A stretch of DNA of 50,010 nt from Patescibacteria group bacterium (GTDB lineage: Bacteria > Patescibacteriota > Minisyncoccia > Phycocordibacterales > DATDWN01): assembly GCA_040389125.1 (NCBI GenBank), contig JAZKAN010000006.1:1-50010 (forward strand), read 5' to 3'. Below the pieces are notes generated by a model. It was given only the letters and a program-made list of their open reading frames with translations, was not told where the DNA came from and did no database searches. Shown one piece after another: positions 9,931-44,946 of this stretch (positions are counted from its first letter, which is position 1; each line of letters begins with the position of its first letter). Both the position numbers and the translations under genes were made by a program.

Positions 9931-9984
9931 TTCATTGTAGAGTGGTCAATTGCAGAAAAGGTGGATTCCAAGTATAATAGTGAG

Positions 9985-10785
9985 ATGGCACATCGGTGGA
10001 CAAAAATTGAGGAAAACAAAATTCGTTCGGAATTAATAAATTTGTACGTTACTGAAAATAAAACACTGAACGAAGTTTCGGTAATATTGGGAATTTCGGA
10101 GTCAACTGTTTTTCAGAGGTTGAGCAGACTAGGCATAAAGTCTCAACCGTATCTGAAACCAAATTATTTAAGAAAACCGAAAGATGTTCAACTTCCAAAA
10201 AAATATTCCGAGGATTTGGCTGAGTTTTTTGGAATTATGCTTGGTGATGGACACGTTAGTCACTTTCAAGTTGTTGTAAGTCTGGGCAATAAAGAAGTGT
10301 CTTATGCTGAGTATGTACGTTTATTTGTGAGAAGTATTTTTCATACAAATGTAAGAATTGCTACCAGAAAAACCGGATATCGGGATGTGTATTTTGGTTC
10401 AACGATTGTTACTTCATGGTTACGAAAAGAAGGATTGGTTAATAATAAAGTTAAATCTCAAGTTGATATTCCTGAATGGATTTTTCAGAGTCAGGAATTT
10501 ATGGAACGGTTTTTAAGAGGGTTTTTTGATACGGATGGATCTGTATATAAGTTACGATTTGGGATTCAGATTTCTCTTACAAATCTATCCACTCCATTAC
10601 TTGTCTCTTTACGTAAACTTCTTTTTGCGTTAGGATATAATCCATCAGAGATAAGTGCTGATAGGGTTTATCTTACGAGGGTCGCGGATGTCGAGCGTTT
10701 CTTTGTTGAAATACAACCAAAGAACAAAAAACATCAGGAGAGGTATAATCAATTTATCTCTAAATTAAGTGGGCAAAATGCGTAG
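9985..10785 (+). CDS. Free-standing double-motif LAGLIDADG endonuclease with N-terminal HTH
   Basis: LAEFFGIMLGDG and FLRGFFDTDG motifs; HTH KTLNEVSVILGISESTVFQRL; start at 9985 supported by TATAAT 9973-9978; stop codon lies inside tRNA-Tyr. Confidence 0.9.
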   Translation: MAHRWTKIEENKIRSELINLYVTENKTLNEVSVILGISESTVFQRLSRLGIKSQPYLKPNYLRKPKDVQLPKKYSEDLAEFFGIMLGDGHVSHFQVVVSLGNKEVSYAEYVRLFVRSIFHTNVRIATRKTGYRDVYFGSTIVTSWLRKEGLVNNKVKSQVDIPEWIFQSQEFMERFLRGFFDTDGSVYKLRFGIQISLTNLSTPLLVSLRKLLFALGYNPSEISADRVYLTRVADVERFFVEIQPKNKKHQERYNQFISKLSGQNA

Positions 10786-10863
10786 ATCGGATAGTGGCTA
10801 TTCCAGGAGACTGTAAATCTCCCGCCTTCAATGGCATCGGGGGTTCGAGTCCCTCTCTACGCA
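10780..10863 (+). tRNA. tRNA-Tyr(GTA)
   Basis: GCGTAGA/TCTACGC acceptor stem, GGAGA-CTGTAAA-TCTCC anticodon arm, long variable arm, GGTTCGAGTCC. Confidence 0.95.
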
Positions 10864-10922
10864 CAATAGTTGCTTTTTTCCTGCATTTTAGGTATGCTAC
10901 AGAGTACTTAAATATAAACAAT

Positions 10923-11078
10923 ATGTCACAAGACCGATTAATTCCACTGCGAAACAAAGCCACTGGCGAAGTATACTGGACTTCAAAAAACAAGAAGAAA
11001 GTTGAGCGAAAAATAGAGCTCAAGAAGTACAGTAAAAAACTCCGAAAAAGAGTTACATTCAAGGAAGCAAAGAAATAA
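10923..11078 (+). CDS. rpmG: 50S ribosomal protein L33 (Cys-free type)
   Basis: YWTSKNKKKVERKIELKKYSKKLRKRVTFKE. Confidence 0.9.
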   Translation: MSQDRLIPLRNKATGEVYWTSKNKKKVERKIELKKYSKKLRKRVTFKEAKK

Positions 11079-11113
11079 AACAAAAACCACCGTATGGTGG
11101 TTTTTGTTTTATT
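11074..11113. terminator. Bidirectional terminator rpmG / tRNA-Trp
   Basis: 18-bp perfect IR AATAAAACAAAAACCACC/GGTGGTTTTTGTTTTATT. Confidence 0.85.
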
Positions 11114-11186
11114 GGCGGGAGATGGAGGAATCGAACCCCCGACAAGGCGTTTGGAGTGCCTCGTTATACCACTTAACTAATCTCCC
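11113..11186 (-). tRNA. tRNA-Trp(CCA)
   Basis: Reverse complement GGGAGAT...AGGCA-CTCCAAA-CGCCT...GGTTCGATTCC...ATCTCCC-G-CCA. Confidence 0.93.
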
Positions 11187-11247
11187 TTATTGAACTCATG
11201 CTATCACATATTTCTAACATTTAAAAACGACACGCCCGACTCCTTTT

Positions 11248-11451
11248 TCAGGAGGCGGGCGGTTGGTGTGGGGTGTGGATGACAAGTGTCACATCCCCAC
11301 GATTTACGTAAGTGACAGTGCATTGTTTAAAGTGCAAGTCGTAGACATCGTGGATTTCACAAAACCCATCCGAGTCAGTTGAAGGAACTCCACAAACACG
11401 ACAGGAACTGTTATCTATCGGATGGAGAGCAGGTTGTACATTGGTAGCCAT
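11248..11451 (-). CDS. Small Cys/His-rich hypothetical protein (putative zinc finger)
   Basis: GAAGGAGG SD 5 nt before ATG; CRVC...FCEIH; own TTGAGA-17-TTTAAT promoter; hairpin 11233-11261. Confidence 0.6.
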   Translation of the reverse strand: MATNVQPALHPIDNSSCRVCGVPSTDSDGFCEIHDVYDLHFKQCTVTYVNRGDVTLVIHTPHQPPAS

Positions 11452-11474
11452 AGCCACCTCCTTCGTACATTAAA

Positions 11475-12743
11475 TCACATACCCAAAATCTTCTCAACTT
11501 TAACACCACGTGAACCTTTTAGGAGGAATGTGTATCCGGTAAAGTTCTGACAATCAAACCACACTTTTGTAGAGTCAGAGTCGGGAAACCAATTATGCTG
11601 AAAGGATGTATTTTGTAGAGCAACCTCGAAATTTTTTCCGATAAAAATTATTGAATCAAGTTTTTGACTGGCAATGTAATCTACTATTTTTTTGTGTTCG
11701 ATTTCTGAGTATTTTCCAAGTTCTAACATGTCTCCAAGTACGACACCGCACGGATGTTGTGCAGATGATATAAAACTTTCAAGTGACAACATCATACTAG
11801 TTGGATTTGCATTGTAACAATCTACAATATAATTTATATTATTTTTGGTAACAAATTCAGATCGTTTTGAAGATGGCGTGTAATTGCAAATTGCAGTGAG
11901 CCCAGTATTAGTATCAATAGTAAAATAATTTCCGACTACAATCGCTAGATTTATATTAATTAGATTATAGTCTCCTGCAAGATGAGTTTTGTATATTTTA
12001 TTTTCAAATGTGATTGTAAGAGGTAAGGATTCAACAATTTCAAAACTTCCTGAGCCGTACCAATGAATTACATTTCCTTCGGAATCTTCCACTAAATCTG
12101 TCTGGTTTTTATCAACAAACACCTCACATTTATTTCCTCGTGCCCAGTCATATATCTCTTTATTAGCTTGTCGCGATCCTTCTGGTGATCCAAAACCTTC
12201 AAGGTGGTCCATACCATTGTTAGTAACCACCACATGTGTAGGTTGTAGAATCTGAAGTAAGTCTAGATGCTCGTGTGGATGATTTGCGCCAATTTCAAAT
12301 ACTGCGATTTCTGTGTCTCTCGGCATTGAGAGAATTGAAAGCGGTACACCTATATGGTTGTTCAAACTTCCGTGAGTTGCGTGCACATTGTATTTTGTTT
12401 TGAGAACATCACGAGTTAGTTCCTTGCTGGTTGTTTTGCCGTTTGAACCACCAATTGCAATGAGTGGAATGGTAAACAGTTTGCGATATTCCTGAGCGAC
12501 AGACTGTAGAGTTTTGACAACATCAGAAACAAGGATAACATTTTCGGTTGTGGCATATAGAGGATTTTGTGTTACTACTGCCAAAGCACCCTTTTCTAAT
12601 GCATTTATTGTAAATGCGCTCCCATCAAATGTCTCCCCAGGTATTGCAAAAAAAACCGTCTCAGCAATATTGCCACGAGTGTCTGTGGAGACACTATAAT
12701 TACACTTTTTCAAAATTGTAATAATCTGATCCAGTTTGCTCAT
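11475..12743 (-). CDS. murF: UDP-MurNAc-tripeptide:D-Ala-D-Ala ligase
   Basis: STDTR, GSNGKTTSKE, NNHIGVP, DCYNANPTSM, LGDMLELG, LKGSRG. Confidence 0.95.
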   Translation of the reverse strand: MSKLDQIITILKKCNYSVSTDTRGNIAETVFFAIPGETFDGSAFTINALEKGALAVVTQNPLYATTENVILVSDVVKTLQSVAQEYRKLFTIPLIAIGGSNGKTTSKELTRDVLKTKYNVHATHGSLNNHIGVPLSILSMPRDTEIAVFEIGANHPHEHLDLLQILQPTHVVVTNNGMDHLEGFGSPEGSRQANKEIYDWARGNKCEVFVDKNQTDLVEDSEGNVIHWYGSGSFEIVESLPLTITFENKIYKTHLAGDYNLININLAIVVGNYFTIDTNTGLTAICNYTPSSKRSEFVTKNNINYIVDCYNANPTSMMLSLESFISSAQHPCGVVLGDMLELGKYSEIEHKKIVDYIASQKLDSIIFIGKNFEVALQNTSFQHNWFPDSDSTKVWFDCQNFTGYTFLLKGSRGVKVEKILGM

Positions 12744-12755
12744 ATATTACACATA

Positions 12756-13649
12756 CTAATTCAAATTAAACCATTTCGCTACTGTCTTCTCAATTTTTTC
12801 CTTCTCACTTGGATTATACCAATTGATATTTTTATCCCTTTTGAACCATGTCATTTGGCGACGGGCATAGCTCCAGATCTCTGATTCGAGATGTTGGAAA
12901 AATTCTGTTTTTGATATTTTGTTTTGAGCCAGTTGTGCCAAGTAGCGATATTCGAGTCCAAGTTCCTGCATGCGTTTCCAGGATAGGCCAGAATCATGCA
13001 GTTTTTTAGATTCCTTAGCCATACCAACTTTCATGCGAGCCAATAAGCGATCGCGAATCCGCTTTTTAAGTTCTTCGTCTGGTTGCGTCAATCCGATTTG
13101 CAGAATGTTATACGAATTTTTTTGTTTGCGGAGTTTCGGTACAGTTCCAAGGGTCTTGGCGATTTCGAGAGCACGAATAAGACGTACAGGATTGTGTGCA
13201 TCAACAGTTCTAGCGCGCTCAGGATCAATTTTCTCTAGCATTTTGAAAAGTTCGACAACGCTTTTTCCACCAAGGTTTCTTCGCAGCAAGGTATTTGGTG
13301 GTACTTCTGGTAGTACAACATTGTCCACAATTGACTGAATATAGAATCCTGTTCCACCACAGATGATAGGGAGTTTGCCACGCGACAAAATGTCCCGAAT
13401 TGCAGTATCTGCCTGCTCACGCCACTCTGCAACACTGAACACTTTTTTCGGTGATACAACATCGAGGAGGTGATGCCTCACTCCGAACATTTCTTTTTTT
13501 GTTATTTTACCCGTTCCAATATCGAGCCCAATGTACACCTGACGTGAGTCAGCAGAAATTACCTCGCCATTGAATTTCTGTGCGAGCTGTACAGCGAGAT
13601 CGCTTTTGCCTGTGGCAGTCTGCCCGAGAATGACGAGGATTTTAGGCAT
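12756..13649 (-). CDS. miaA: tRNA dimethylallyltransferase
   Basis: GQTATGKS, SADSRQVY...DIGTGK, GGTGFYI, YARRQMTWF. Confidence 0.96.
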   Translation of the reverse strand: MPKILVILGQTATGKSDLAVQLAQKFNGEVISADSRQVYIGLDIGTGKITKKEMFGVRHHLLDVVSPKKVFSVAEWREQADTAIRDILSRGKLPIICGGTGFYIQSIVDNVVLPEVPPNTLLRRNLGGKSVVELFKMLEKIDPERARTVDAHNPVRLIRALEIAKTLGTVPKLRKQKNSYNILQIGLTQPDEELKKRIRDRLLARMKVGMAKESKKLHDSGLSWKRMQELGLEYRYLAQLAQNKISKTEFFQHLESEIWSYARRQMTWFKRDKNINWYNPSEKEKIEKTVAKWFNLN

Positions 13650-13665
13650 ATGTAATTACAGATAT

Positions 13666-13809
13666 TGTGCCGGAGGAGGGAATCTTGACTACATTTTTTG
13701 CTCGTCGTCACTCACAAAAAATCTAGTCGGCGGATTTTCGACATCGCGTGTTCGCGACGTAAACCGAAAATCCGTTCAAGCCCCTCCCACAAAGCTTCGC
13801 TTTGTTTCC
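13666..13809 (-). repeat. tRNA-3'-derived structured element (direct plus inverted copy of the tRNA-Leu 3' end)
   Basis: TGTGCCGGAGGAGGGA at 13666-13681 and 13810-13825; GTTCAAGCCCCTCC 13774-13787 is inverted (13/14) to 13819-13832; two internal hairpins. Confidence 0.85.
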
Positions 13810-13811
13810 TG

Positions 13812-13895
13812 TGCCGGAGGAGGGACTTGAACCCTCACGAGCTTGCGCCCACAGCATTTTGAGTGCTGCATGTTTACCAATTACATCACTCCGGC
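13812..13895 (-). tRNA. tRNA-Leu(CAA)
   Basis: Reverse complement GCCGGAG...CAGCA-CTCAAAA-TGCTG...GGTTCAAGTCCCTC-CTCCGGC-A. Confidence 0.95.
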
Positions 13896-13975
13896 AATTC
13901 ATCAAATCCTATCCTCTTTTTCCAAAAAAATCAATTTTGTGATAAAATTCGGTCATACTTTTTATATGATATTTT

Positions 13976-15040
13976 ATGTCTCAATTTTATAACGACTCTA
14001 TATTCTGGATTGATGTTGAAAAGATAAGCCCAAACCCGTTTCAACCGAGACGTGAGTTTGATGAGATGCAACTACAATCTCTCGCGGATTCTATACGTCA
14101 GTACGGAGTCCTACAGGCTCTTGTGGTGACTCGCAAGGAGGTTGAAAAAGACGACGGAGGACTCGCGGTGCAGTATGAGCTCATAGCAGGTGAGAGACGT
14201 TTGCGTGCGTCGAAACTGGCAGGACTGACACAGGTACCAGTTCTCATAAAAGTTGGTGACGAGGCAAACGACCTCATGAAACTCGAACTTGCAATTATCG
14301 AGAACATTCAGCGTGAGGATTTAAATCCGGTTGACCGTGCACGTGCGTTCGAGAGACTTTCAACAGAGTTTGGATTCAAACATATCGCCATTGCAGAAAA
14401 AGTGGGCAAAAGTCGTGAGTATGTTTCGAACACGCTTCGCCTCCTCATGCTTCCTCCAGAAATTCTCGATGCGCTCAGTCAGGGTAAAATATCCGAAGGA
14501 CATTCGAGGCCTCTCATGATGCTCAGCGATCGTCCTGACGAACAGAATACTGTGTTCAAGGAGATCATGTTCAAGAAACTTTCTGTACGCGAGACGGAAG
14601 CAATCGCGCGTCGTATTGCATATGACAAGATTCGCAAGAAGGGTGCAATTTTGGATCCGGAAACTCAGGAACTGGAGGAGAAACTAACAGAGACTCTTGG
14701 TACCCGTGTCTCTATTGAAAAACGTGAAAATGGTGGCAAGATTCTGATTGATTTCTTTTCTGCAGATGATCTTCGTGGAATTTTGGATCTTATTAAAACC
14801 AACAAAAAAGCATCATCTCCTACAGAAATGATGGATCGGCACATAGAGGCAAACCCGATTCCACCAGTCAACGGGTGGATACCCAACTATGCAGAGTCAA
14901 AACCGGAAATAGTCGAAATGAGTCTCGAAGATATTAAAAATGCAAATAAAAATGTGGACGATAGGTTGCCGGAGGAAATAAAAAAAGAGGAAAATACGGA
15001 TACGGATGAGATGTATTCGATCAAGAATTTCAGTATCTAA
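13976..15040 (+). CDS. parB: ParB/Spo0J partition protein with acidic C-terminal extension
   Basis: PNPFQPRREF, LIAGERRLRA, IIENIQREDLNP, GKSREYVSNTLRL. Confidence 0.93.
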   Translation: MSQFYNDSIFWIDVEKISPNPFQPRREFDEMQLQSLADSIRQYGVLQALVVTRKEVEKDDGGLAVQYELIAGERRLRASKLAGLTQVPVLIKVGDEANDLMKLELAIIENIQREDLNPVDRARAFERLSTEFGFKHIAIAEKVGKSREYVSNTLRLLMLPPEILDALSQGKISEGHSRPLMMLSDRPDEQNTVFKEIMFKKLSVRETEAIARRIAYDKIRKKGAILDPETQELEEKLTETLGTRVSIEKRENGGKILIDFFSADDLRGILDLIKTNKKASSPTEMMDRHIEANPIPPVNGWIPNYAESKPEIVEMSLEDIKNANKNVDDRLPEEIKKEENTDTDEMYSIKNFSI

Positions 15041-15178
15041 ATTTCAAATCTCGTTGAGTGCACTTGCTGTGTAGGCGCATCACGGAGTCCGTGTAGAGAC
15101 GAGTGCGAGGAAAATTTTCAGCAGAAAATTATTCCGGCGACTACACAGCAAGTGCCGAGAAAGAGATTTGAAATTTAG
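15037..15178 (+). repeat. Family-1 three-way-junction palindromic element, copy A
   Basis: 16-bp outer and 15-bp inner perfect stems around the 66-nt core 15075-15140. Confidence 0.9.
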
Positions 15179-16708
15179 TTACTTCTTCTCTTTCTCAAGA
15201 AAAGCACGAATGTGTCGTTTTGCCATTGTAGTTTTACAGTAGTCAATCCACTTGCGATTTGGCTTTGAGTTTTTCTTTGTATCAATCTCTACTCGATCAC
15301 CGTTTTTGAGTGTGGTGTAGATTGCCACAAACTTCCCATTAACTTTTGCTCCCACGACATGCAGCCCGATAACAGAGTGAACAGCAAATGCAAAATCAAT
15401 TACTGATGAATCAATGGGCAGATCGATCACATCACCTTTAGGAGTAAACACAAAAATTCTTTCTTCAAAAAAGTCTGTCTTTACCTCGTCGAGAAATTCA
15501 TCTTCCCCGATATCTTTTTGATATTCTACAAGTTCCTTGACCCATTTTGGCACATCGTCGAGGTTCAGAGTTGATTTAATTTTTCCAGCATTTTCGTTCC
15601 AATTTTCAGTAACGGGTAGAATTTTCTTTACCCACAGCAAACTCGGGTTTGTTATTTTTTGTTTTTTTGGATTTTGCTGATTTTGTTTATATGAAATATG
15701 TGATGCAATACCATACTCTGCTTCTTGGGACATCTCCGGAGTTTTTATTTGCACCTCGATTATTCCACCGTCACCAGTAAAAATCGTGGTATGCAGAGAC
15801 TGATAGCCGTTTGGTTTTGGAAAAGCAATATAGTCTTTGATGCGACCAGGTAGCGGTCGCCAGTTACTATGAATAATTCCAAGTACACGGTAGCAGTCAG
15901 CGACAGTTGGTACGATAACGCGGAGTGCAGATATGTCATGTACTTTGTCGATATCTTTTCTCTGTAGTTTTTTGTACAGACTATACAATCCCTTGAGGCG
16001 ATATTCTGTTTTAAAATTCGTCACCTCATTTTTTGCAAGTTCTTTTTTGAGAGTTTTTGTAAATTTTTCAAGAGCTTCTATTTCTGCACCTTGTCTCTGT
16101 TTTACCAGATTTGCCACTTCTGCATACTCTTTTGGAAGCACGAATTTGAACGCGAGATCCTCGAGCTCACGATTGAGTTTTCTGATTCCGAGGCGGTAGG
16201 CGATAGGTGCATAGATTTCGAGTGTCTCTGTCGCAATGCGCAGTTGCTTCTCGACCGGCACATACTCGAGCGTTTGCATATTGTGTAGACGATCACAGAG
16301 TTTGATAATGAGCACACGAATATCCTGCGACATTGCCACAAAAAGTTTACGGAGACTTTCCGTATGGTGTTTACCCGTACCACGATACTTTATTTTTCCA
16401 AGCTTGGTCACTCCCTCGACAAGAAACCGAATTTCCTTGCCAAACTCCTTTTCAATTTCCTCGGCAGAAACAGGCACATCTTCAATAGTGTCATGTAGGA
16501 ACCCTGCAGAAATAGTCGTCGCACCCATACCAAGATCCGCAAGATTTTTGGCAGTAGCAAAAAGATGATTGAAATACGGCTCGCCACTTTTTCTTTTTTG
16601 CTCCCCATGCGCCTTGGCAGCAAAATCATACGCCTTGCGTACTAATGCCATATCGCTATCCGTCGGATTGTGGAGTAATGAGATTATCTGTTGAATATCG
16701 TTTGCCAT
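15179..16708 (-). CDS. RelA/SpoT (p)ppGpp synthetase/hydrolase (HD-SYNTH-TGS)
   Basis: QKRKSGEPYFNH, LHDTIED, IKLCDRLHNM, KPNGYQSLHT, VFTPKGDV; probable start MANDI (TATAAT 6 nt upstream). Confidence 0.93.
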   Translation of the reverse strand: MANDIQQIISLLHNPTDSDMALVRKAYDFAAKAHGEQKRKSGEPYFNHLFATAKNLADLGMGATTISAGFLHDTIEDVPVSAEEIEKEFGKEIRFLVEGVTKLGKIKYRGTGKHHTESLRKLFVAMSQDIRVLIIKLCDRLHNMQTLEYVPVEKQLRIATETLEIYAPIAYRLGIRKLNRELEDLAFKFVLPKEYAEVANLVKQRQGAEIEALEKFTKTLKKELAKNEVTNFKTEYRLKGLYSLYKKLQRKDIDKVHDISALRVIVPTVADCYRVLGIIHSNWRPLPGRIKDYIAFPKPNGYQSLHTTIFTGDGGIIEVQIKTPEMSQEAEYGIASHISYKQNQQNPKKQKITNPSLLWVKKILPVTENWNENAGKIKSTLNLDDVPKWVKELVEYQKDIGEDEFLDEVKTDFFEERIFVFTPKGDVIDLPIDSSVIDFAFAVHSVIGLHVVGAKVNGKFVAIYTTLKNGDRVEIDTKKNSKPNRKWIDYCKTTMAKRHIRAFLEKEKK

Positions 16709-16748
16709 ATTCTGATTATACATACAAAGTGGTTGTTTGGAGAGGGGA

Positions 16749-16777
16749 TTGACAAACGACTCCAATGGGTGTATAAT
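16749..16777 (+). promoter_or_regulatory. Consensus sigma70 promoter of ORFan 16802
   Basis: TTGACA-17 nt-TATAAT, then AGGAG. Confidence 0.8.
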
Positions 16778-16801
16778 ACCATATAGGAGAGTACTCTACA
16801 C

Positions 16802-17134
16802 ATGACAAGCGAATCGAAAAGGATTTTTGTTATTTGTGCAGTTTTTGGTAGTCTTATCGGATTCTGTGCGACAAAAATGTTTGCGTATCAGCTGGAGATT
16901 TCCGGCTATCGCACACAAATTCAAGAAGTTTGTCGTACCTTCGAAGAAGTATCCGACTGGGTTCCTGCTGGAAAGCAGGAGGTCAAAATCTCATGCATTG
17001 ACAGTTCGTCCAGAAACGAGATTGTAATCCGTCTTTGGGGTGTAGATCACAACCAACCGATAATTGGGTATGTGATTGAAAGGGATGGGCGTAGGGAACC
17101 ATTCAAATCCCTGGACTTTCAATTGAAGAAGTAA
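16802..17134 (+). CDS. Hypothetical exported/membrane-anchored small protein
   Basis: N-terminal hydrophobic helix; own promoter, SD and hairpin terminator (~17138-17175). Confidence 0.65.
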   Translation: MTSESKRIFVICAVFGSLIGFCATKMFAYQLEISGYRTQIQEVCRTFEEVSDWVPAGKQEVKISCIDSSSRNEIVIRLWGVDHNQPIIGYVIERDGRREPFKSLDFQLKK

Positions 17135-17209
17135 TTTTCCCGCCAGCACGGCAGAAAGACTGTCGCTCGGCGGGATTTCTGTTTACAAATTTAAATAATA
17201 GAATCACCA

Positions 17210-17378
17210 CTAAACAAATTTCACTCATACATTTTCAGAGCATCCGCAGACCTTGAGCATGGTTTTGTCAAAGTCCCGAGTATTCTCGGGTTCATTGACA
17301 AATCAAGGTCGAGGACCGAAAAAACCTTTCGCAGGAAAGGTTTTTGTCTCTGAAAATGTATGAGTGAAATTTGTTTAG
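17210..17378 (+). repeat. Family-2 three-way-junction palindromic element, copy D
   Basis: 31-bp perfect terminal IR enclosing CATCCGCA-[stem]-GAGGACCGAA-[stem, GCAG loop]-TGT. Confidence 0.9.
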
Positions 17379-17381
17379 GAG

Positions 17382-19646
17382 TTACTCAGCTTTCTTTTTC
17401 TTTGCGAACCCTCGCTTCTTTTTCTCCTGTGCAAAAATCTCGAGAGCACGAGGAAGTTCGATCGTATACACATCATCATCCTTGAGTGATCGGAAATCCT
17501 TTTGATGTACAACATACGGACCAAACATTCCAATATTCGCAGTTATCTTTTCTCCCGTATCCGGATGAACACCCAGCACACGAGGCAAAGTCAAATACTT
17601 GAGCGCATCCTGTAGCGTAATCGTCTCCGGATCCTTGCCCTTTGGCACACTCGCCATTTTTGGCTTTGGTAGTTTTACTGCTTTTGGCTTTTTGATTTTC
17701 TTTCCGTTTTCATCAAACTCGGGTACAGCTTTTGCAGATGACTTTTTCGGCATTTCACCGAGCTGTACATACGGACCATATCTGCCGATGAGCACAAAAA
17801 TAGGCAGTCCCGTTTCCGGATCAATTCCGACTGGTTCATCTTTTTTAATTTCCTTGCCTTCCATGGTTAGTGCTCCCTCGCAGTCTGGATATCGAGCGCA
17901 TGATAGAAATTTACCACCACGAGAAAGCTTAATAATCATTTTGCCACCACACACAGGGCATTTGAATTTTGGATCAGCATCACCAAGGTTTGTGACCTTG
18001 TCCATTTTCTCTTTGCTTTTGACCTCGGCAAGAAATGGCTTGTAAAACGTCTTGAGCATTTTTGCATATTCCTCTTTGCCTTCTGCGATAAGGTCGAGAC
18101 GGTCTTCCATGTCGGCAGTAAAACTGTCACTGATATATCCGCCGAAATTGGCTTCGAGAAAACTAGACACAACATCTCCGGTGTCAGTAGGCACAAGTGC
18201 CTTGTTTATTTTCTCGACATATCCACGGTCCTCGATTGTTTTAATAATTGAGGCGTATGTCGATGGACGACCAATGCCACGTTTTTCGAGTTCCTTTACG
18301 AGACCTGCCTCAGAATATCGTGTCGGTGGTTCGGTATGTTTTTCCTCGGTTAAAACTTTTTGTAAATCCAAATCTTCTCCCACAGTAACTGGTGGGAGTT
18401 CAACATCCTCGCCACGCGATGGGGGATCTCCGAGAAGCCAGCCGGGAGAAGTGATGCGAGAACCTGTAATAGAAAAGTCAGGAATTTCTTCACCAGGTTT
18501 TGCGTCTTTAATGTTCGCAGTAATTTTCGTACGCAAGGTCTGTGCATCTTTCATCTGTGAACTGACCGCACGTCGCCAGATGAGTGTGTAGAGTTTCTGT
18601 TGCTCATCATTCAGTCCCGCCTTCTCCACATCAAAATGTGTTGGACGTATTGCCTCGTGTGCCTCCTGTGCATTTTTGCTTTTTGCTGAATACGTTCTGA
18701 TCTGCACGTATTCCTTTCCAAATTTCTTCTCGATGACTTGTGTGATCTGACTGAGCGCCATTTGACTGAGGTTCGTTGAGTCAGTACGCATGTATGTAAT
18801 ATGTCCTGCCTCGTATAGTCGCTGTGCAATACCCATCGTACGAGATGGCGCAAACCCGAGTCGTGATGAGGCTGACTGTTGTAGAGTAGAAGTAATAAAC
18901 GGTGCACGTGGAGTTTTCTTTACATCGGATTCTTTTACATCTTTGACTATCCAGGATCCCTTCTCGGCAATAGTCACAATTCGATCCACACTTTTCTGGT
19001 CGAGTGGCTCTTCCTCGCAGATCACTGTAAATGGTACTTTTTTGCTACTCTCTACCTCTGCAGAAATAACCCAAAATGAGTGTGAAATAAATGCACGAAT
19101 TTCTCTTTCGCGTTCCATGACAATGCGGAGTGCGGGTGATTGCACACGACCCGCAGAGAGTCCGTAACGAACTTTTTTCCAGATCAGTCCCGAGAGGTCG
19201 TATCCCACCAGTCTGTCGAGCACACGACGTGCTTCCTGTGCTTGTTTCAGGTTGTCATCAATGTCTCGCGGATGTTGTATTGCCTCTGTCACGGCTTCTT
19301 TTGTGATTTCATGAAATACAACACGCTGTGGGTGTTTGAGTCCGATTGCGTCCGCAATGTGCCACGCGATTGCCTCGCCCTCGCGGTCGGGGTCAGTTGC
19401 AAGTAATACCACACTTGATTCCTTTGCGAGTGATTTTATTTCTGCTACCACTTTTTCCTTGCCCTTGGATATTTCATAGTGAGGCACGAAACCTGCTTCA
19501 ATATCAATTGCTGCTTTGTTTGATTTTGGCAAATCACGAACATGACCCACAGATGCGACCACGGTGTATTCACCATTCAAATATTTTGAAATTGTTTTTG
19601 CTTTTGCGGGGGACTCGACGATGAGTAGTTTCATCTTTTTATTCAT
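17382..19646 (-). CDS. topA: DNA topoisomerase I
   Basis: LIVESPAKAKTI, ATDPDREGEAI, SAGRVQS, ITYMRTDS, GIGRPSTYA; zinc ribbon and Topo_C repeats; probable start MNKKMK. Confidence 0.96.
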   Translation of the reverse strand: MNKKMKLLIVESPAKAKTISKYLNGEYTVVASVGHVRDLPKSNKAAIDIEAGFVPHYEISKGKEKVVAEIKSLAKESSVVLLATDPDREGEAIAWHIADAIGLKHPQRVVFHEITKEAVTEAIQHPRDIDDNLKQAQEARRVLDRLVGYDLSGLIWKKVRYGLSAGRVQSPALRIVMEREREIRAFISHSFWVISAEVESSKKVPFTVICEEEPLDQKSVDRIVTIAEKGSWIVKDVKESDVKKTPRAPFITSTLQQSASSRLGFAPSRTMGIAQRLYEAGHITYMRTDSTNLSQMALSQITQVIEKKFGKEYVQIRTYSAKSKNAQEAHEAIRPTHFDVEKAGLNDEQQKLYTLIWRRAVSSQMKDAQTLRTKITANIKDAKPGEEIPDFSITGSRITSPGWLLGDPPSRGEDVELPPVTVGEDLDLQKVLTEEKHTEPPTRYSEAGLVKELEKRGIGRPSTYASIIKTIEDRGYVEKINKALVPTDTGDVVSSFLEANFGGYISDSFTADMEDRLDLIAEGKEEYAKMLKTFYKPFLAEVKSKEKMDKVTNLGDADPKFKCPVCGGKMIIKLSRGGKFLSCARYPDCEGALTMEGKEIKKDEPVGIDPETGLPIFVLIGRYGPYVQLGEMPKKSSAKAVPEFDENGKKIKKPKAVKLPKPKMASVPKGKDPETITLQDALKYLTLPRVLGVHPDTGEKITANIGMFGPYVVHQKDFRSLKDDDVYTIELPRALEIFAQEKKKRGFAKKKKAE

Positions 19647-19680
19647 GCTGTTGATTATTACTGTAAAAAATATTTTTTGC

Positions 19681-19817
19681 AAATCAAAAAAACTCTTTCT
19701 CGTCATATGTTTTCTGTCGCCGGAATAATTTTCTGCTGAAAATTTTCCTCGCACTCGCGTCTTCACGCGCTCCGTGATGCGCCAGAAAACATATGACTTC
19801 GACGAGTTTTTTGATTT
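19681..19817 (-). repeat. Family-1 element, copy B
   Basis: Same 66-nt core on the minus strand; different 15-bp inner stem GTCATATGTTTTCTG/CAGAAAACATATGAC. Confidence 0.9.
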
Positions 19818-19889
19818 CCACAGATGACGTCGGTTGGGGGATTTGACAAAAAGGGTAAATAGGAGTTCAATTAAATGAGGAGATGACAT

Positions 19890-20078
19890 ATGGCTACGGC
19901 CACAAAAACCGCATTACAAAACGGCAACACCAAGTATTGCACAACTCAGTGCAATACCTTCGTTACCGCCGGCGATCCTGACAAGATCGAGTACAATGGA
20001 TCCCGCTTTCATCGGGGATGCCTTGTCAAGACAAATGAGGGAAAGGAGATACTGGCTCTGGTGTGTAAGCGTAAATAG
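19890..20078 (+). CDS. Small Cys/His-containing hypothetical protein
   Basis: GAGGAG SD; TTGACA-17-TTCAAT promoter 19843-19871; CTTQC...FHRGC; hairpin 20099-20125. Confidence 0.6.
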   Translation: MATATKTALQNGNTKYCTTQCNTFVTAGDPDKIEYNGSRFHRGCLVKTNEGKEILALVCKRK

Positions 20079-20161
20079 GAGCCAATTTTGATTTGAAGAA
20101 GGCGCCCCCGATGTGGTGGCGCCTTTAGTGTTTACAAAATATTTTCAAAACTTTGGAAATA

Positions 20162-21028
20162 TTACTTTAAGTGGATTTCTCCCATGACTTCCTCAATCAG
20201 TCCCTTTATTTCCATGGTGGCGAGTATCGTCTGCGTTACATACACAGGCTTGCCGAGTTCGCGAATTATCGCATCACGGGAAAGGGGTTCTCGGAGAATG
20301 TTGATTACTTCGTGTTCATCAGTCGAGCAGTCACTGTAGTCTCGTGATTCAAACAAATCGTCATGTGGTCGTAGTCCGAGCGCGCTCACGATATCACTTG
20401 ACTGTGTGATCGGTGTTGCACCAAGTCGGAGTAGCATGTGAGGACCTTCGGATGTTTTAGAAAAAATAGAGTGGGGAACAGTGAACACATCGCGATTGTA
20501 TTCAATTGCGTATTTAGAAGTGATGAGTGTGCCAGATTTTAATTCTGCCTCGATCACAAGTGTCGCGTGTGACATGCCCGCAATGATGCGATTGCGTTGT
20601 GGAAAGTTTGAAGGATATGACGGTTCCTTATCAGGAAACTCAGATAGGAGTGTCCCGCCACTTTCCACTATTTCTTCGGCAAGTCCTCTATGTTGTGCGG
20701 GGTAGAGGAATTTAGGATCGAGACCAGATCCAGGAATCGCGACCGTACGTAACCCGGCATTTAGTGCCGCTCGGTGAGCTATGGAGTCGATTCCGAGTGC
20801 CAGTCCCGATACAATCACGATCGGGTATCCACGCAGACCCTCGATCAATTTTTCACATACTGCCTTGCCGTACTCACTGTATTTGCGCGCGCCGACGACA
20901 GCCAGGTATTTTATTTCGTCACTGTCCCGATCTGGCAACTCACCCACAATTCGCATTTCTTTTGGCGGATCATTTATTTCAAGGAGTAGTTTGGGAAAGT
21001 CCTTTTTATGCAGAGTCTCTATCTTCAT
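20162..21028 (-). CDS. dprA: DNA-processing protein DprA/Smf
   Basis: AVVGARK, VSGLALGIDSIAH, FPQRNRIIAG, KSGTLIT; upstream of topA. Confidence 0.95.
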   Translation of the reverse strand: MKIETLHKKDFPKLLLEINDPPKEMRIVGELPDRDSDEIKYLAVVGARKYSEYGKAVCEKLIEGLRGYPIVIVSGLALGIDSIAHRAALNAGLRTVAIPGSGLDPKFLYPAQHRGLAEEIVESGGTLLSEFPDKEPSYPSNFPQRNRIIAGMSHATLVIEAELKSGTLITSKYAIEYNRDVFTVPHSIFSKTSEGPHMLLRLGATPITQSSDIVSALGLRPHDDLFESRDYSDCSTDEHEVINILREPLSRDAIIRELGKPVYVTQTILATMEIKGLIEEVMGEIHLK

Positions 21029-21130
21029 ATATATAGTATAGCAGAGGATTCTGAAACAATTACAATATATTTAGACTAGATAAATCCCGCAGTTTTCATA
21101 TTTCCAACTTTGGTATACTATATACATACT

Positions 21131-22411
21131 ATGTTAGATATTAAATTCATTCGGGAAAACAAAGACTTGGTGGCACTTGGTGCAAAGAAAAAGCACATCG
21201 AGTTTGATGTAGACGCACTCATTACTACCGATGACAAACGTCGCGAGCTTCTTGCAAGTATCGAGAAAAAGCGTGCAGAACAAAATGAGGTTAGTGAGAA
21301 AATTGTACGCACACAGGAGCAATCCGAAAAATCAGATATGATTTCAAAAATGCAGACACTAAAAGTAGAACTGCAAAAAGAAGAGGAAGAACTCAAAACC
21401 GTCATGCACGACTGGCAGATGCGCATGGTAACGGTCCCAAACATTCCCGATATGTCAGTGCCAGAGGGCAAGGATGATAGCGAAAATAAGGAAGTGAAAG
21501 TCTGGGGCGAGATTCCTAAATTTGATTTTACTCCACGGGATCACATTGAACTCATGACAAATCTCGGTATGCTTGATCTCGAACGTGGTACAAAAGTTGC
21601 GGGGTTTCGTGGATATTTTCTAACCGGAGACGGAGCGCGACTTCAGTTTGCCCTGTGGAATTTTGTGCAAGATTTTTTTAATAAAAAAGAAGGATTTAGA
21701 CCGATGATCGTGCCATCTCTCGTACGACGTGAGCCGTTTATGGGCACAGGCTATCTGCCACAGAGCGAGGAGGATTTGTATAAAACGCAGGACGGTGAAT
21801 ATCTCTCGGGTACAGCAGAGGTTGCAACCATGGCTTTCTATATGGACGAGGTTTTAGAGAAAAAAGATTTACCAATAAAAATGCTCGCATTTTCAAATGC
21901 GTTTCGACGCGAGGCGGGTAGTCATGGCAAAGATACAAAAGGAATTTTGCGTGTGCACGAGTTTTATAAATACGAGCAGGTGGTGCTGTGCGAGGCGTCC
22001 CATACGGAGTCTGTAAAATACCACGAGGAAATCCAGATGAATACTGAGGAACTAACACAGGCCCTCGAACTCCCATACCATGTCGTAGTAAACTGTGGCG
22101 GCGATTTGGGTCTCGGTCAAGTTAAAAAATACGACATCGAAGTATGGCTTCCATCCGAAGGTAAATACCGTGAGACAGGCTCTGCGTCATACTTTCATGA
22201 TTTCCAAACACGACGACTCAACATCCGCTATCGCGATGACGATGGTAAAATGAAATTTGTGCACTCGCTCAATAACACCGCACTCTCTGGTAGGCCGCTC
22301 ATTATGATTATCGAAAACTTCCAAAATGCCGACGGCTCGATTCGTATCCCAACCGCCTTGCAACCCTACATGGGAGGGCAAACCATCATCACCAAGCCCC
22401 AGTCAAACTAA
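21131..22411 (+). CDS. serS: Seryl-tRNA synthetase
   Basis: MLDIKFIREN, GTAEV, FRREAGSHG, RVHEFYKYEQ, VHSLNNTA. Confidence 0.97.
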   Translation: MLDIKFIRENKDLVALGAKKKHIEFDVDALITTDDKRRELLASIEKKRAEQNEVSEKIVRTQEQSEKSDMISKMQTLKVELQKEEEELKTVMHDWQMRMVTVPNIPDMSVPEGKDDSENKEVKVWGEIPKFDFTPRDHIELMTNLGMLDLERGTKVAGFRGYFLTGDGARLQFALWNFVQDFFNKKEGFRPMIVPSLVRREPFMGTGYLPQSEEDLYKTQDGEYLSGTAEVATMAFYMDEVLEKKDLPIKMLAFSNAFRREAGSHGKDTKGILRVHEFYKYEQVVLCEASHTESVKYHEEIQMNTEELTQALELPYHVVVNCGGDLGLGQVKKYDIEVWLPSEGKYRETGSASYFHDFQTRRLNIRYRDDDGKMKFVHSLNNTALSGRPLIMIIENFQNADGSIRIPTALQPYMGGQTIITKPQSN

Positions 22412-22412
22412 T

Positions 22413-22543
22413 AATTTTAATCTCGTTGAACAAAAGATTTTCTGGCGCATCACAGAGCGCGTGAAGACGCGAGTGCGAGGAAAATTTCTAGCAAGAAATT
22501 ATTCCGGCGACAGAAAATCTTTTGAGAATAAGAGATTAAAATT
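22413..22543 (+). repeat. Family-1 element, copy C
   Basis: Same core with compensatory AATTTCT-AGCA-AGAAATT hairpin; 14-bp inner and 12-bp outer stems. Confidence 0.9.
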
Positions 22544-22553
22544 TTAACATTCA

Positions 22554-23393
22554 ATGCCCAAATACTCATCACATCGCCAAGAAGAGTATATAAAGAAAAA
22601 ACACAAAAGACGACGAATCAAAGTCATTATTTTCTTCGTATTATTTTTTCTTTCCATTGGTTTTCTCATTTGGATTGCACATCGCCCGTCACTGCGTATT
22701 TCTGAAGTTGAACTCTCGGGTGGAGTACTCGTGACACAACAGGAAGTTTCTACAGAAGTCATACAATTTATTTCTGGTTCCTACATCTGGGTGTTTCCAA
22801 AAAATAACGCACTGCTCTACCCACAGAAAAAACTTGAGAAATATTTGAAGGATCATTTCAAACGTATCGATACAATTCATGTGGATACAAAAAATCTCCA
22901 CACCATGAGCGTGGAAATTTCTGAACGCAAATCTGAGGCACTGTGGTGTGGCGGTGTTCCAGGAGAAACAGAGGGTGAACAGGGACAGTGCTATTTTATG
23001 GATGCAAACAGCACAATTTTTGCAGAAGCACCGCAGTTTTCGGGTGATGCATATTTTAAATACTACGGATTGGTAACGACTGACTCACCCATTGGTTTAG
23101 AGTACATGGCGACGAGTACGGATTTTGCTGAACTTTCAAATTTCGTACAAAACGCTCGGAGATTACAAATAAAACCAGAATATGTTGTTGCAAAAGATAC
23201 AGGAGAATTTACTCTTGTTCTCGCTGGTGGTGGCAAAATTTATTTTGATAATAAAGAACCTCTGACTAAAGTGGCAGACAACCTCGAGGCTCTTCTGCGC
23301 ACCCCCGCACTAGTCCCGTCTACAAACGCTGATTTGCCGATCGATTATATTGATCTCAGATTTGGTAATAAATTGTTTTATAAACTGAAATAA
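22554..23393 (+). CDS. FtsQ/DivIB-like cell division protein
   Basis: Basic N-terminus, single TM helix, POTRA-like segment, VEISERK, C-terminal YIDLRFGNKLFYK. Confidence 0.8.
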   Translation: MPKYSSHRQEEYIKKKHKRRRIKVIIFFVLFFLSIGFLIWIAHRPSLRISEVELSGGVLVTQQEVSTEVIQFISGSYIWVFPKNNALLYPQKKLEKYLKDHFKRIDTIHVDTKNLHTMSVEISERKSEALWCGGVPGETEGEQGQCYFMDANSTIFAEAPQFSGDAYFKYYGLVTTDSPIGLEYMATSTDFAELSNFVQNARRLQIKPEYVVAKDTGEFTLVLAGGGKIYFDNKEPLTKVADNLEALLRTPALVPSTNADLPIDYIDLRFGNKLFYKLK

Positions 23394-23449
23394 AAACGAA
23401 ACGTACCCAGCCAAGTGGCGGGGTACGTAATGAGAGAACTTGCGAGAAA

Positions 23450-23851
23450 TTAGATCAGACCAAGGATGCTCTCAAGTTCTGTCACGTGCAGTTTTCTCTT
23501 TCTTGGTCGCATGTATGTGAGGAAAAAATTAACCACGTTTCCGCACGAAAGGTCACTTACCGACTCGATGAAACCAATAACCTGACCGTCTGTTCTTTCT
23601 ACCAGAACGGAATAGTAGTGGATATTGATTTTCACGGGATGTCCTCCGATGCTACCAATACTCACTACAAGTGGTCTGTTTAGACATCTCACCGACACAT
23701 GCGAGTTTACTTCCAGTCGGTCAATGAAATATCTGTTTGTGACGATATCTCCTTTAAAGAGATAGATGCAGTCTGTGAGAAGTGTTTTTTCACTATCACT
23801 CAGATTTCTAAGAACATGTGCTGCTTCAAAAGCAACGATATCAGCTGGCAT
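23450..23851 (-). CDS. Hypothetical protein (ORFan cassette)
   Basis: GGGGAG SD before MPADI; TTGACA upstream; hairpin 23401-23428; similarity to known families not recognised. Confidence 0.55.
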   Translation of the reverse strand: MPADIVAFEAAHVLRNLSDSEKTLLTDCIYLFKGDIVTNRYFIDRLEVNSHVSVRCLNRPLVVSIGSIGGHPVKINIHYYSVLVERTDGQVIGFIESVSDLSCGNVVNFFLTYMRPRKRKLHVTELESILGLI

Positions 23852-23920
23852 TATCTTTTCTCCCCATTTCAAATTACGCCTTTTTGATGATTTGTCAATG
23901 TGTGGTACAGTACTTTCATT

Positions 23921-24952
23921 ATGAATTTTTGGCAGGAATTAAAAGCACAGAAAAATGGTGAGCCGATACTTGTCCTCGCACCGATGGCTGATGTTACCGA
24001 CCCGGCATTTCGACGTATCATCGCCAAATATGGTAAACCAGATGTCATGTGGACCGAGTTTGTTTCTGCAGATGGACTATTTCTCGGTGGACGAGAGGCA
24101 CTGATCAAGGACCTTGCATACGATGAATCTGAACGACCTATCGTGGCACAGTTTTTTACATCGTCGCCAGAACGCATGATGCAGGCGGGGATGCTCGCGG
24201 TGGAACTTGGGTTCGATGGACTCGACATTAACATGGGTTGTCCAGACAAAAGCATCGAGAAACAAGGAGCAGGTGCGGGACTTATAAAAAATCCAACTCT
24301 TGCCAAGGAACTGATTCGATCGGCAAAAGAAGGAATTCGTGTCGCAAGTTTGAAAAAAAATATTCCAGAGGACAAACATATTCCTGTGTCCGTCAAAACT
24401 CGGATTGGATACAACAAAAATGAACTCGAGACATGGCTACCTGCTCTTTTAGATAGCGAGCCTGCAGTTGTCACTATTCACGCACGTACCCGCAAAGAAA
24501 TGTCACTCGTGCCTGCACGGTGGGAGCATGTGGCACGTGCGGTTGAGATTCGCGATAGCTGGCGGGGTGCAGATGGGCAGAAAAGTCAGACACTTATTTT
24601 CGGAAATGGTGATGTATTAAATATTGCGGACGCAGAAAAGAAAGCCACGGAGACACACTGCGATGGTGTCATGCTCGGTCGTGCGATATTTGGAAACCCA
24701 TGGTGTTTCAGTAGGGAGGTTAGTCGCGACGACATTTCGATTCCTGATCGACTGCGCGTCATGGTAGAACACACCAAACTTTTTGAGGAGCTTTTGCCAC
24801 ACAAAAGTTTCGCAATCATGAAAAAGCACTACAAGGCATATGTGAATGGATGGGATGGTGCCAAGGAACTACGAATGAAATTGATGGAGGCAAAAGACGC
24901 CAGTGAAATAGAACTCATTATTTCTGAGTATTTTAAAAATGGCTCTGTATAG
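23921..24952 (+). CDS. tRNA-dihydrouridine synthase
   Basis: LAPMADVTD, DINMGCP, SVKTRIG, IHARTRKE, GNGDV, DGVMLGRA. Confidence 0.95.
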   Translation: MNFWQELKAQKNGEPILVLAPMADVTDPAFRRIIAKYGKPDVMWTEFVSADGLFLGGREALIKDLAYDESERPIVAQFFTSSPERMMQAGMLAVELGFDGLDINMGCPDKSIEKQGAGAGLIKNPTLAKELIRSAKEGIRVASLKKNIPEDKHIPVSVKTRIGYNKNELETWLPALLDSEPAVVTIHARTRKEMSLVPARWEHVARAVEIRDSWRGADGQKSQTLIFGNGDVLNIADAEKKATETHCDGVMLGRAIFGNPWCFSREVSRDDISIPDRLRVMVEHTKLFEELLPHKSFAIMKKHYKAYVNGWDGAKELRMKLMEAKDASEIELIISEYFKNGSV

Positions 24953-25035
24953 GCACAAAATAAAATAAGTAAAAAGAAAATGAAGAAAATGTGTAAAAGT
25001 AATTGACTTATTTTGTGGTTGTGCTATACTTATAG

Positions 25036-25226: not shown

Positions 25227-25272
25227 ATTACCCAATTTTTCAAAAATTAAAATCCTCTGCTATACTACAGAC

Positions 25273-37280: not shown

Positions 37281-37440
37281 GCCTAACCCCTCCTACATTT
37301 CGGCAACATCCGCAAACGCCGAGCTCGGTGTTGTCAACGACTCGAGTAATCTCGAGCTCATTGACAACGAGGCGTTGAGGACCGAATGAGGCTTCCGCAG
37401 GAGAAGCCGAGTGTTTGCCGAAATGTAGGAGGGGTTAGGC
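37281..37440 (+). repeat. Family-2 element, copy E
   Basis: 26-bp perfect terminal IR; same junction sequences as 17210-17378 with re-written stems. Confidence 0.9.
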
Positions 37441-44725: not shown

Positions 44726-44946
44726 ACTAATTCTCTCACTAAGTTATTTTTGAGCACGCATAAAGTTTTGGTAAACTTTTGCTCTCGCTCGAAGATCAAG
44801 AAAACAATCAGCTCAATTCATAGCCTTCCCACAAACTCCTCGCTGAGTACAGCTTCGTCAAACAGTGCTCCAGGCTTATTTCATCTTCGTTGTTGTTTTC
44901 TAATCTTCTCCGCAGTCTCAAAAATAATTTAGATGAGAAAATTAGT
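44726..44946 (-). repeat. Divergent three-way-junction palindromic element, copy G
   Basis: ~29-bp imperfect terminal IR; long internal stem; minus-strand GCA-AAAGTTT-ACCA-AAACTTT-A-TGC hairpin mirrors the family-1 hairpin. Confidence 0.7.

Follow-up and report, generated by a model that had tools for sequence, protein, structure and literature searches.

The 50,010-nt stretch of DNA analysed here, which we call the window, is contig C6 of assembly G000 (526,311 bp in 8 contigs, 41% G+C, 71% estimated completeness) and carries three copies of a structured intergenic repeat, Family 1. Zambryskibacteria-like Parcubacteria, a group within the candidate phyla radiation (CPR), harbour a lineage-specific superfamily of small interspersed repeats, of which Family 1 is one branch. 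It behaves like an undescribed mobile element and not like a gene switch or a terminator, and we infer that it moves and does so via a folded single strand, either single-stranded DNA (ssDNA), as in IS200 and repetitive extragenic palindrome (REP) systems, or RNA. We give an even chance to the specific proposal that Family 1 is a non-autonomous mobile repeat, akin to REP/REPIN sequences or to miniature inverted-repeat transposable elements (MITEs), that spreads in this way. Its high copy number, its occurrence in any spacer and orientation, the turnover of its sites, the presence of several families in the same spacers and its recombining modules together indicate an interspersed mobile repeat, and its strand-specific fold points to propagation via a folded single strand. 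Positions below refer to the window; among the other genomes, labelled G0xx, the relatives G009, G002 and G016 bear the element, G046 is a further relative, and G034 and G040 are free of the element.

A first-pass annotation made from the sequence had proposed three copies of a 66-nt core, and the copies lie where it placed them. As a count of the window three is correct; as a count of the genome it is not, since nhmmer finds 21 copies in 526 kb, spread over six contigs. From 20 of these we built a covariance model, R1, leaving out the copy at C1:95304-95446 with its 22-nt insert; R1 recovers all 21 at E <= 5.6e-22. The copies in the window are:

15032..15183, + strand: copy 1, whole hairpin with copy-specific outer stem (inverted repeat I1; fold -66.8 kcal/mol, z = -9.1)
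15046..15169, + strand: copy 1, conserved element (R1 match, 127.6 bits, E = 6.7e-32)
15075..15140, + strand: copy 1 core, a three-way junction (from sequence and alignments; all helices have compensatory variants)
19678..19820, - strand: copy 2, whole hairpin (inverted repeats I3 and I21; fold -59.5 kcal/mol, z = -9.2)
19689..19810, - strand: copy 2, conserved element, with core at 19717-19782 (R1 match, 135.3 bits, E = 4.7e-34)
22400..22556, + strand: copy 3, whole hairpin (inverted repeats I5 and I9; fold -49.5 kcal/mol, z = -7.8)
22418..22538, + strand: copy 3, conserved element, with core at 22445-22510 (R1 match, 131.6 bits, E = 5.2e-33)

Three occurrences of the shared 18-mer CGAGTGCGAGGAAAATTT lie in the window, where shuffled sequence gives 0.05 and none of 100 shuffles reaches three; for each whole copy none of 200 shuffles folded as well. 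The arms of I1 (15032-15078 and 15137-15183) are 47 nt long and 85% complementary.

The element comprises about 121 nt of conserved sequence, or about 140-160 nt with its outer stems. In its predicted fold a long two-part stem, broken by a conserved internal loop, leads to a three-way junction from which a short hairpin, P2, and an 11-bp hairpin, P3, emerge. Projecting the RNAalifold consensus onto the sequence of copy 1 gives the following parts, all on the + strand:

15046-15052 / 15163-15169: P1a, AAAUCUC / GAGAUUU
15053-15058 / 15156-15162: conserved asymmetric internal loop, GUUGAG / CGAGAAA
15059-15074 / 15141-15155: copy-specific inner stem of 15-16 bp (consensus fold)
within the copy 1 core: junction closure, GCGC / GCG
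15081-15083 / 15103-15105: P2a, 3 bp, CAC / GUG
between P2a and P2b: P2 internal loop, GGA/GA
15087-15090 / 15096 and 15098-15100: P2b, 4 bp, with loop GTGTA and bulged A15097
15109-15119 / 15124-15135: P3, 11 bp, with loop AGCA (15120-15123) and bulged A15131

The bulged A, the copy-specific inner stem (14-16 bp), the internal loop (GTYGA / GAGAAA) and the variable outer stem that the first-pass annotation had described are all real features of the family. The consensus of the P2b loop is G-U-G-W-A, and three copies in the genome have exchanged the internal loop for perfect pairing. P1a (AAATCTC / GAGATTT) acts like a short inverted terminus, outside which the helix usually runs on into copy-specific sequence: over the next 10 positions 5.1 are complementary in cis, compared with 2.9 +/- 0.15 when flanks of different copies are paired. 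These copy-specific outer stems around near-identical interiors may be fast-evolving termini of subfamilies, and they may arise through hairpin-templated repair. Their origin by insertion into pre-existing terminator loops finds no support: orthologous sites that are empty show no palindrome, and the GC-rich tops of the genome's terminator-like hairpins are absent from the outer stems. About one third of the copies in this genome and G009 open with a shared 5' motif, ACCACUAA(A/G)C, that also precedes other core families. Ahead of the ACCAC motif lies an A/T-rich AAAAT(T/C) stretch, the sole upstream feature kept in the alignment. This A/T-rich stretch precedes the ACCACUAAGC leader.

The fold is supported by covariation. 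The compensatory pairs originally pointed out (GTC/GAC against GCG/CGC, and TTTTC/GAAAA against TTTCT/AGAAA) are real, and covariation persists when the alignment is enlarged. Among the 20 copies from this genome, 31 of the 42 predicted pairs show compensatory double changes; among 80 model-aligned copies, which come from G009 and 18 loci of other genomes, 40 of 42 are changed on both sides. Standard pairs fill 95.9% of the cells of the 80-copy alignment, compared with 67.3% after column shuffling and 40-53% when partners are slid, in an alignment that was fitted to the model, which favours structure, and whose copies are related and thus not independent trials. P2a is completely changed between genera and carries a genome-specific signature, CAC/GUG here and UGC/GCA (or UCC/GGA) in G009. 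The element matches no known RNA family: at gathering scores Rfam 15, which covers the known self-cleaving ribozymes and small RNAs, finds only 7 tRNAs in the whole window, and at E values up to 10 the region 14500-23000 gives four hits no better than chance, three of them with miRNA models and one with a snoRNA model, all away from the Family 1 copies.

It is one particular strand that carries this constraint. The helices contain 102 G-U pairs and 16 A-C mismatches, counts that partly repeat the same pairs in related copies and are therefore not independent; the G-U to A-C bias is 26:5 in copies opposed to both neighbouring genes and 30:3 in co-oriented copies. Of 83 copies compared on both strands, 75 favour the sense over the antisense strand under RNA parameters and 82 do so under DNA parameters. 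The G-U bias and the stability of the sense strand together argue that one defined strand is constrained to fold, independently of the transcription of its neighbours. As modelled, this strand-specific fold fits folded single-stranded DNA as well as it fits RNA.

Extending the core search across the genomes of relatives, as had been suggested, finds further copies and establishes Family 1 as a genuine structured family with compensatory changes. R1 has matches in 31 of 40 relatives, whose genomes measure 0.5-0.9 Mb. All 24 sampled genomes of the same family contain it, with 2-49 matches each. For 16 other families of the order one genome each was sampled, and 8 of these match; in the class, 10 of 150 evenly sampled genomes match at E <= 1e-6, spread over eight families. 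R1 found no match in nine genomes of the same order, each at least 95% complete. An exact-pattern scan with one genome per species returned 39 loci, all in metagenome-assembled genomes (MAGs) titled Parcubacteria, Zambryskibacteria or Minisyncoccia, with a few labelled Saccharibacteria.

Placement shows little regard for the neighbouring genes. With genes called by a longest-ORF script (open reading frames, ORFs, of at least 100 aa) and not taken from annotation, 83 elements of this genome and G009, pooled, have genes on both sides, and all of them lie between genes. Their spacers are tandem in 54 cases, convergent in 11 and divergent in 18, a split close to the background of 846, 176 and 178, and within tandem spacers 29 elements are co-oriented with the genes and 25 opposed. 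These numbers bear out the earlier proposal that the element is neither a simple terminator nor a cis-leader. The range of contexts claimed for the three window copies holds in part: one lies between convergent genes (ParB / RelA-SpoT) and two between tandem genes (DprA-TopA; SerRS-next gene), and none between divergent genes, a context that is found elsewhere in the genome (5 of 26 elements). Copies commonly occupy an entire spacer, beginning 1-30 nt past the stop codon. Orientation does not depend on the replication strand as deduced from GC skew, 15 of 26 elements lying in the direction of the leading strand, and no clustering, arrays or regular spacing were seen.

Sites turn over between relatives. 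This genome and G009, whose proteins are about 66% identical, have only 2 of 25 sites in common. Downstream of the seryl-tRNA synthetase gene serS, where copy 3 lies, 11 relatives were compared: in six the gap measures -8 to 16 nt, in one, G046, a Family 2 core (see below) sits in the same stem chassis, and in four there are other inserts of 107-216 nt. At the ParB/RelA junction that holds copy 1, 28 relatives comprise 14 with gaps of at most 11 nt, 6 with gaps of 19-42 nt, some of which are simple hairpins, and 7 with inserts of at least 134 nt, which come from other families and of which R1 matches one; that survey also had one further locus with no RelA match and one with inconsistent coordinates. 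In genus g7 a site of G016 is filled in some species and empty in others. The modules also move between copies: three P2b alleles (CTG, ATG, GCG) and two P3 alleles (TTTTC, TTTCT) occur in all six combinations among the 20 copies, which indicates recombination and not repeated fourfold mutation. At G000 C7:26757-27020 a Family 1 copy is nested in a degraded Family 3 element whose outer stem still closes around it. A Family 1 variant with a 22-nt insert (UAAGGGUACACUUAUGCA..GC) after GCGCAU occurs in both genera, at G000 C1:95304-95446 and G009 C7:16900-17042, which are non-orthologous sites.

Family 1 shares its stem with several other cores. The chassis of P1 and P3 carries the short P2 of Family 1, a form of 174 nt whose P2 holds an insert of 50 nt, a type B core that starts GGAGACUCCGGACGC, Family 2, whose core starts CAUCCGCAG, and Family 3; the P3 hairpin with its bulged A and AGCA loop is kept across core types. 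Beyond the 21 copies, R1 picks up in this genome four weaker relatives whose core is different and, via the stem, one Family 2 element. The window contains three elements of these other families:

17201..17387, + strand: Family 2 element (inverted repeat I2, 40-nt arms, 90% complementary), same chassis with a larger core
37281..37440, + strand: second Family 2 element (I4, 100% complementary), with a perfect 26-bp copy-specific stem
44739..44932, - strand: Family 3 element of about 200 nt (I17), same chassis with a P3-like hairpin

The Family 2 element at 17201-17387 shares the 5' motif ACCACTAAAC with Family 1 and has the core CATCCGCAG .. TTGTCAA .. ATTGACAA .. GAGGACCGAA .. CGCAGGA; R1 matches 17214-17374 through the chassis at E = 4.5e-9. 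G009 has at least 8 copies of Family 2, and two of its Family 2 hairpins carry cUUCGg loops. The Family 3 core starts GAGACTGCGG / GAGACUGCGG, has a long P2 insert homologous to that of the 174-nt Family 1 relatives, and is related to the weaker R1 matches; we aligned it with G000 C1:262600-262900 and with C7:26720-27080, a degraded copy.

We envision a scenario in which one defined strand would fold into the long hairpin with its conserved asymmetric internal loop and three-way-junction cap. The conserved unpaired bases (the junction, the GGA/GA, GUGWA and AGCA loops and the bulged A) could then form a recognition surface for a putative trans-acting enzyme that copies or moves the element. 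Copies would trade modules by recombination or gene conversion, and the complementarity of the arms would be maintained by selection on the fold, perhaps with the help of hairpin-templated repair.

A partner enzyme was sought in several ways. The Y1 transposase domain Y1_Tnp (PF01797) is present in 24 of 41 genomes. G009 has six Y1-like ORFs of 212-235 aa with partial Y1_Tnp matches (C14:35-727, C16:58117-58809, C18:72803-73465, C12:8893-9600, C20:24674-25312 and C3:48949-49650), none with a Family 1 copy within 3 kb. Their gene and palindrome layout is REP/RAYT-like and unrelated to Family 1, and some of the palindromes recur beside Family 1 copies. No other multi-copy transposase was found. 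The sole rve match of G000 lies at 200-469 (-) of C8, a tiny separate contig of 1,059 bp. Subtracting genomes (G009 ORFs that also occur in G000 and are absent from G034 and G040) left 51 of 928 ORFs, of which 50 were scanned, one being dropped for having two loci. They are mostly metabolic and include no convincing candidate; those related to nucleic acids are an ECF-type sigma factor, two HNH proteins, two C5 methylases, XseA and a DinB-type polymerase. The HNH proteins were rejected as partners, occurring in 16 and 12 of 41 genomes compared with 32 of 41 for the element. At G009 C7:25753-27491 two inverted Family 1 copies surround three ORFs, the first of which encodes the ECF-type sigma factor; its G000 counterpart is 30% identical, and it was not found in G034 or G040. 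The idea that the GA-rich internal loops are kink-turns bound by L7Ae was likewise dropped, since L7Ae occurs in none of the 41 genomes. Searches of mobile genomes came back empty, both by exact pattern in viral contigs and by blastn in phage and plasmid collections.

Several observations weigh against a mobile repeat. Y1_Tnp was not found in G000 (71% complete), in G002 (27 matches, 95% complete), in G016 (12 matches, 99% complete) or in six more element-bearing genomes of the same family, and five of the six Y1-like genes of G009 are flanked by a short palindrome of their own that differs from gene to gene. At least three of five element-rich genomes lack RVT_1, and the same holds in turn for the TnpB zinc ribbon, IS110, DDE_Tnp_1 and rve (DDE_Tnp_1 and the TnpB ribbon found in 0/5, IS110 in 0/5 over the cut-off, rve in 2/5), and G016 has none of the six transposase or reverse-transcriptase families tested. 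Neither G000 nor G009 contains arms split around an ORF, as in an autonomous parent. No direct repeat that could be a target-site duplication was found at the similarity ends of the near-identical copies C7:35510 / C7:39390 and C2:10773 / C3:1426 / C4:7585, and no filled and empty alleles were seen within a species, congeneric species being 72-80% identical in flanking genes. The non-independence of the G-U counts and the scripted gene calls temper the strand and placement results. Finally, the three-way junction, the conserved unpaired bases, the variable-length P2 and the cUUCGg loops look more like a functional RNA, and the junction core is more elaborate than any transposon end of which we know. 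An elaborate core and no partner found keep an RNA family in play as a serious rival.

The first-pass annotation had leaned towards a discrete functional RNA such as a ribozyme; copy number, placement, filled and empty sites and core swaps instead point first to a mobile repeat. We consider it somewhat unlikely that the copies are multi-copy small non-coding RNA genes, each transcribed from its own strand, the closing stem being processed (for example by a double-strand RNase), the core acting in trans as a ribonucleoprotein, ribozyme or decoy, and copies arising by duplication and being lost by deletion. This model draws on an architecture like that of functional RNAs (P2 is short in Family 1 and has a 50-nt insert in the 174-nt relatives, and P3 is kept across cores), on the excess of G-U on the strand of the element, which persists when both neighbouring genes run the opposite way, and on the fact that no transposase tracks the element. 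The P2b loop G-U-G-W-A fits a pentaloop of the GNRNA type, and the cUUCGg loops of the two Family 2 hairpins in G009 are also in keeping with this model. Transcription is where the model meets difficulty. For 43 of 84 elements the 5' neighbour is oriented away from the element, so that read-through cannot supply the transcript; there is no conserved upstream -35/-10 at a fixed distance, judged by assumed promoters from which those of this lineage may differ; promoter-like sites in 14800-22800 are not enriched (10, compared with 14.1 +/- 3.5 in shuffles); and the unit is not closed by a terminator. To our knowledge no bacterial family of trans-acting small RNAs has 20-50 genes per 0.5-0.9 Mb, and the turnover of sites between species, unrelated core families in the same spacers, the lack of L7Ae and a subtraction without an RNA-binding candidate all speak against it. 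A reading of the superfamily as a whole as a modular small structured RNA, in which a common long-stem chassis with interchangeable three-way-junction cores is present in tens of copies in CPR genomes, is in our judgement unlikely. It could be either a catalytic or self-processing RNA driving its own spread through an RNA mobile intermediate or a guide-less ribonucleoprotein RNA peculiar to episymbionts. It is prompted by the invariant unpaired junction bases, the covarying and length-variable helices, the tolerance of G-U on one strand and the want of a recognisable transposase partner.

A cis-acting module of mRNA, selected site by site as a 3'-end stabiliser, an RNase processing site or an elaborate terminator or insulator, is quite improbable. 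It would suit copies that fill their spacer from 1-30 nt after a stop codon, and copy 1, whose stem embeds both stop codons of two convergent genes; P1a, A-rich on its 5' side and U-rich on its 3' side, resembles the bases of the genome's bidirectional terminator-like hairpins, and influences on the stability and termination of mRNA are documented for REP, ERIC and Correia elements. But orientation is random with respect to genes (29:25), 18 copies lie between divergent genes, and the one-strand constraint on the fold also holds in copies opposed to both neighbours. Most relatives do with gaps of 0-16 nt at the same junctions, and the position of copy 2, past terminator-like sites and ahead of the promoter-like site of topA, would put it in neither mRNA. 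We regard as very improbable a non-mobile site acting at the level of DNA, where a cruciform or folded strand would bind a nucleoid, replication, topoisomerase or recombination protein. In its favour, gyrase, IHF and Pol I are ligands of REP/BIME sequences, every sampled genome of the taxonomic family contains the repeat, and the fold is equally good with DNA parameters, by which sense beats antisense in all but one of 83 copies. Such a site would nonetheless lack regular spacing and replication-strand bias, vary from 2 to 49 copies between sister genomes, occupy sites that are not conserved and be dispensed with in nine same-order genomes that are at least 95% complete, and the need for a three-way junction in a site of chromosome function goes unexplained.

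Copy 1 occupies the spacer between convergent genes encoding ParB-like (13976-15040, +) and RelA/SpoT-like (15179-16765, -) proteins (Pfam), and the stop codons of both are embedded in its stem. Copy 2 lies between a DprA-like gene (20162-21028, -) and topA, whose true start is at 19646 (-). A mechanically called topA ORF, 17382-19889 (-), extends 81 codons further upstream, through copy 2; the Toprim domain starts only after the ATG at 19646 (Pfam on 17382-19646). A coding role for the element was rejected, copy 1 having an in-frame stop at a place where copy 2 is open. Copy 2 is downstream of terminator-like sites (19908-19940) and upstream of the promoter-like site of topA (19654-19683); this sequence, TTGCAA-17-AATAAT, has a -10 element that ends 7 nt ahead of the ATG and would give a leaderless mRNA. 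Copy 3 occupies the spacer between serS (21110-22411, +) and the next gene (22554-23393, +; Pfam).

Other features of the window stand apart from the three copies. The divergent dprA-serS spacer has inverted repeats at 21027-21046 / 21108-21127 and at 21034-21050 / 25251-25267, one arm of which, TAGTATAGCAGAGGATT, recurs inverted 4.2 kb away. The gene at 166-831 (+) encodes an HNH-domain protein of some 220 aa that is 58% identical to a G009 protein and occurs patchily, in 16 of 41 relatives. Long near-perfect hairpins of 15-18 bp, with loops of 3-4 nt and stems bordered on one side by an A-tract and opposite by a T-tract, lie at 9893-9930, 11074-11113, 30681-30714 and 48719-48755 and are probably bidirectional terminators; with stems of at least 13 bp, terminator-like hairpins number 45 in G000 and 98 in G009. 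Contigs of the probable source run end within repeats, at 15141, 17239/17349, 19544/19755 and 22484/22488, and a comparison of these contigs over 5001-25000 gave no usable joint spanning an element.

CPR genomes rank with the smallest and most compact on record; since this lineage nevertheless puts up with dozens of structured repeats, something must propagate or need them. If the repeats are mobile, the mobilising enzyme would lie outside the standard transposase families or be only intermittently present, and in either event DNA or RNA would be moving by a route not yet described. As RNAs, the repeats would make up a new family of unusual size, well supported by covariation and built on a junction core. 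In practical terms, they fragment short-read MAG assemblies, in which contigs end inside cores, inflate ORF calls, as in the false 81-codon extension of topA, and serve as a lineage marker for Zambryskibacteria-like genomes.

We found no description of these repeats by full-text searches on intergenic repeats, MITEs and noncoding RNAs in CPR, Parcubacteria or Patescibacteria, or on Zambryskibacteria, judged by listings and abstracts and with a coverage outside subscription journals. Comparable dispersed families are known from other bacteria. Correia/NEMIS in Neisseria, ERIC/IRU in enterobacteria, RUP and BOX in pneumococci and RPE in Rickettsia measure 100-160 bp, have inverted ends and occur in tens to hundreds of intergenic copies; they fold as RNA if co-transcribed, vary between relatives and in several cases have no known transposase. 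The usual definition of such families rests on terminal inverted repeats that are conserved and on a duplicated target. In Family 1, by contrast, the terminal stems are variable and an internal junction with covarying helices is conserved, no target duplication is seen at the ends of the near-identical copies compared, and the genomes that it inhabits, of 0.5-0.9 Mb, belong to a CPR lineage. The attC sites of integrons are imperfect palindromes of 57-141 nt in which structure is conserved over sequence and extrahelical bases mark the folded strand; they lie co-oriented at cassette ends, in arrays beside an integrase gene. Family 1 copies stand singly, in both orientations, among housekeeping genes, and their conserved centre and variable stems are the reverse of attC.

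TIGR arrays, reported in CPR as part of TIGR-Tas, are described in the available portion of PMC12045711 as tandem, placed beside a Tas gene and bearing box C/D motifs, with variable spacers in loops. As far as that portion goes, Family 1 resembles them in having structured repeat units with hairpins and conserved short motifs in Parcubacteria-type genomes. We rejected a TIGR array on architecture, with no search for Tas proteins made, given that Family 1 is dispersed singly over six contigs and has conserved loops and variable stems. The closest parallel is with REP, BIME and REPIN sequences. REPINs, according to the accessible text of PMC3116915, form hairpins in ssDNA or mRNA, are random in extragenic space and commonly show compensatory changes; the REP transposase, in the part of PMC8266576 open to us, recognises REP strand-specifically, as folded ssDNA with a required bulge. 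Insofar as these two partial sources describe them, Family 1 shares with such elements high-copy, extragenic hairpins of about 100 nt in random orientation with compensatory changes, a strand-specific folded single strand with irregularities such as a bulge, and intergenic mosaics of repeat modules. It differs in having no invariant GTAG guide (as REP is defined in the same portions of PMC3116915 and PMC8266576), in being one long hairpin with a 66-nt junction cap and not a doublet of a short palindrome, and in having cores that are interchangeable on one stem chassis. No Y1 transposase (RAYT / TnpA-REP) gene is flanked by Family 1, and none is detectable in several element-rich genomes. By the defining features of GTAG guide, REP doublet and flanking RAYT gene, then, Family 1 is not a member of REP/REPIN.

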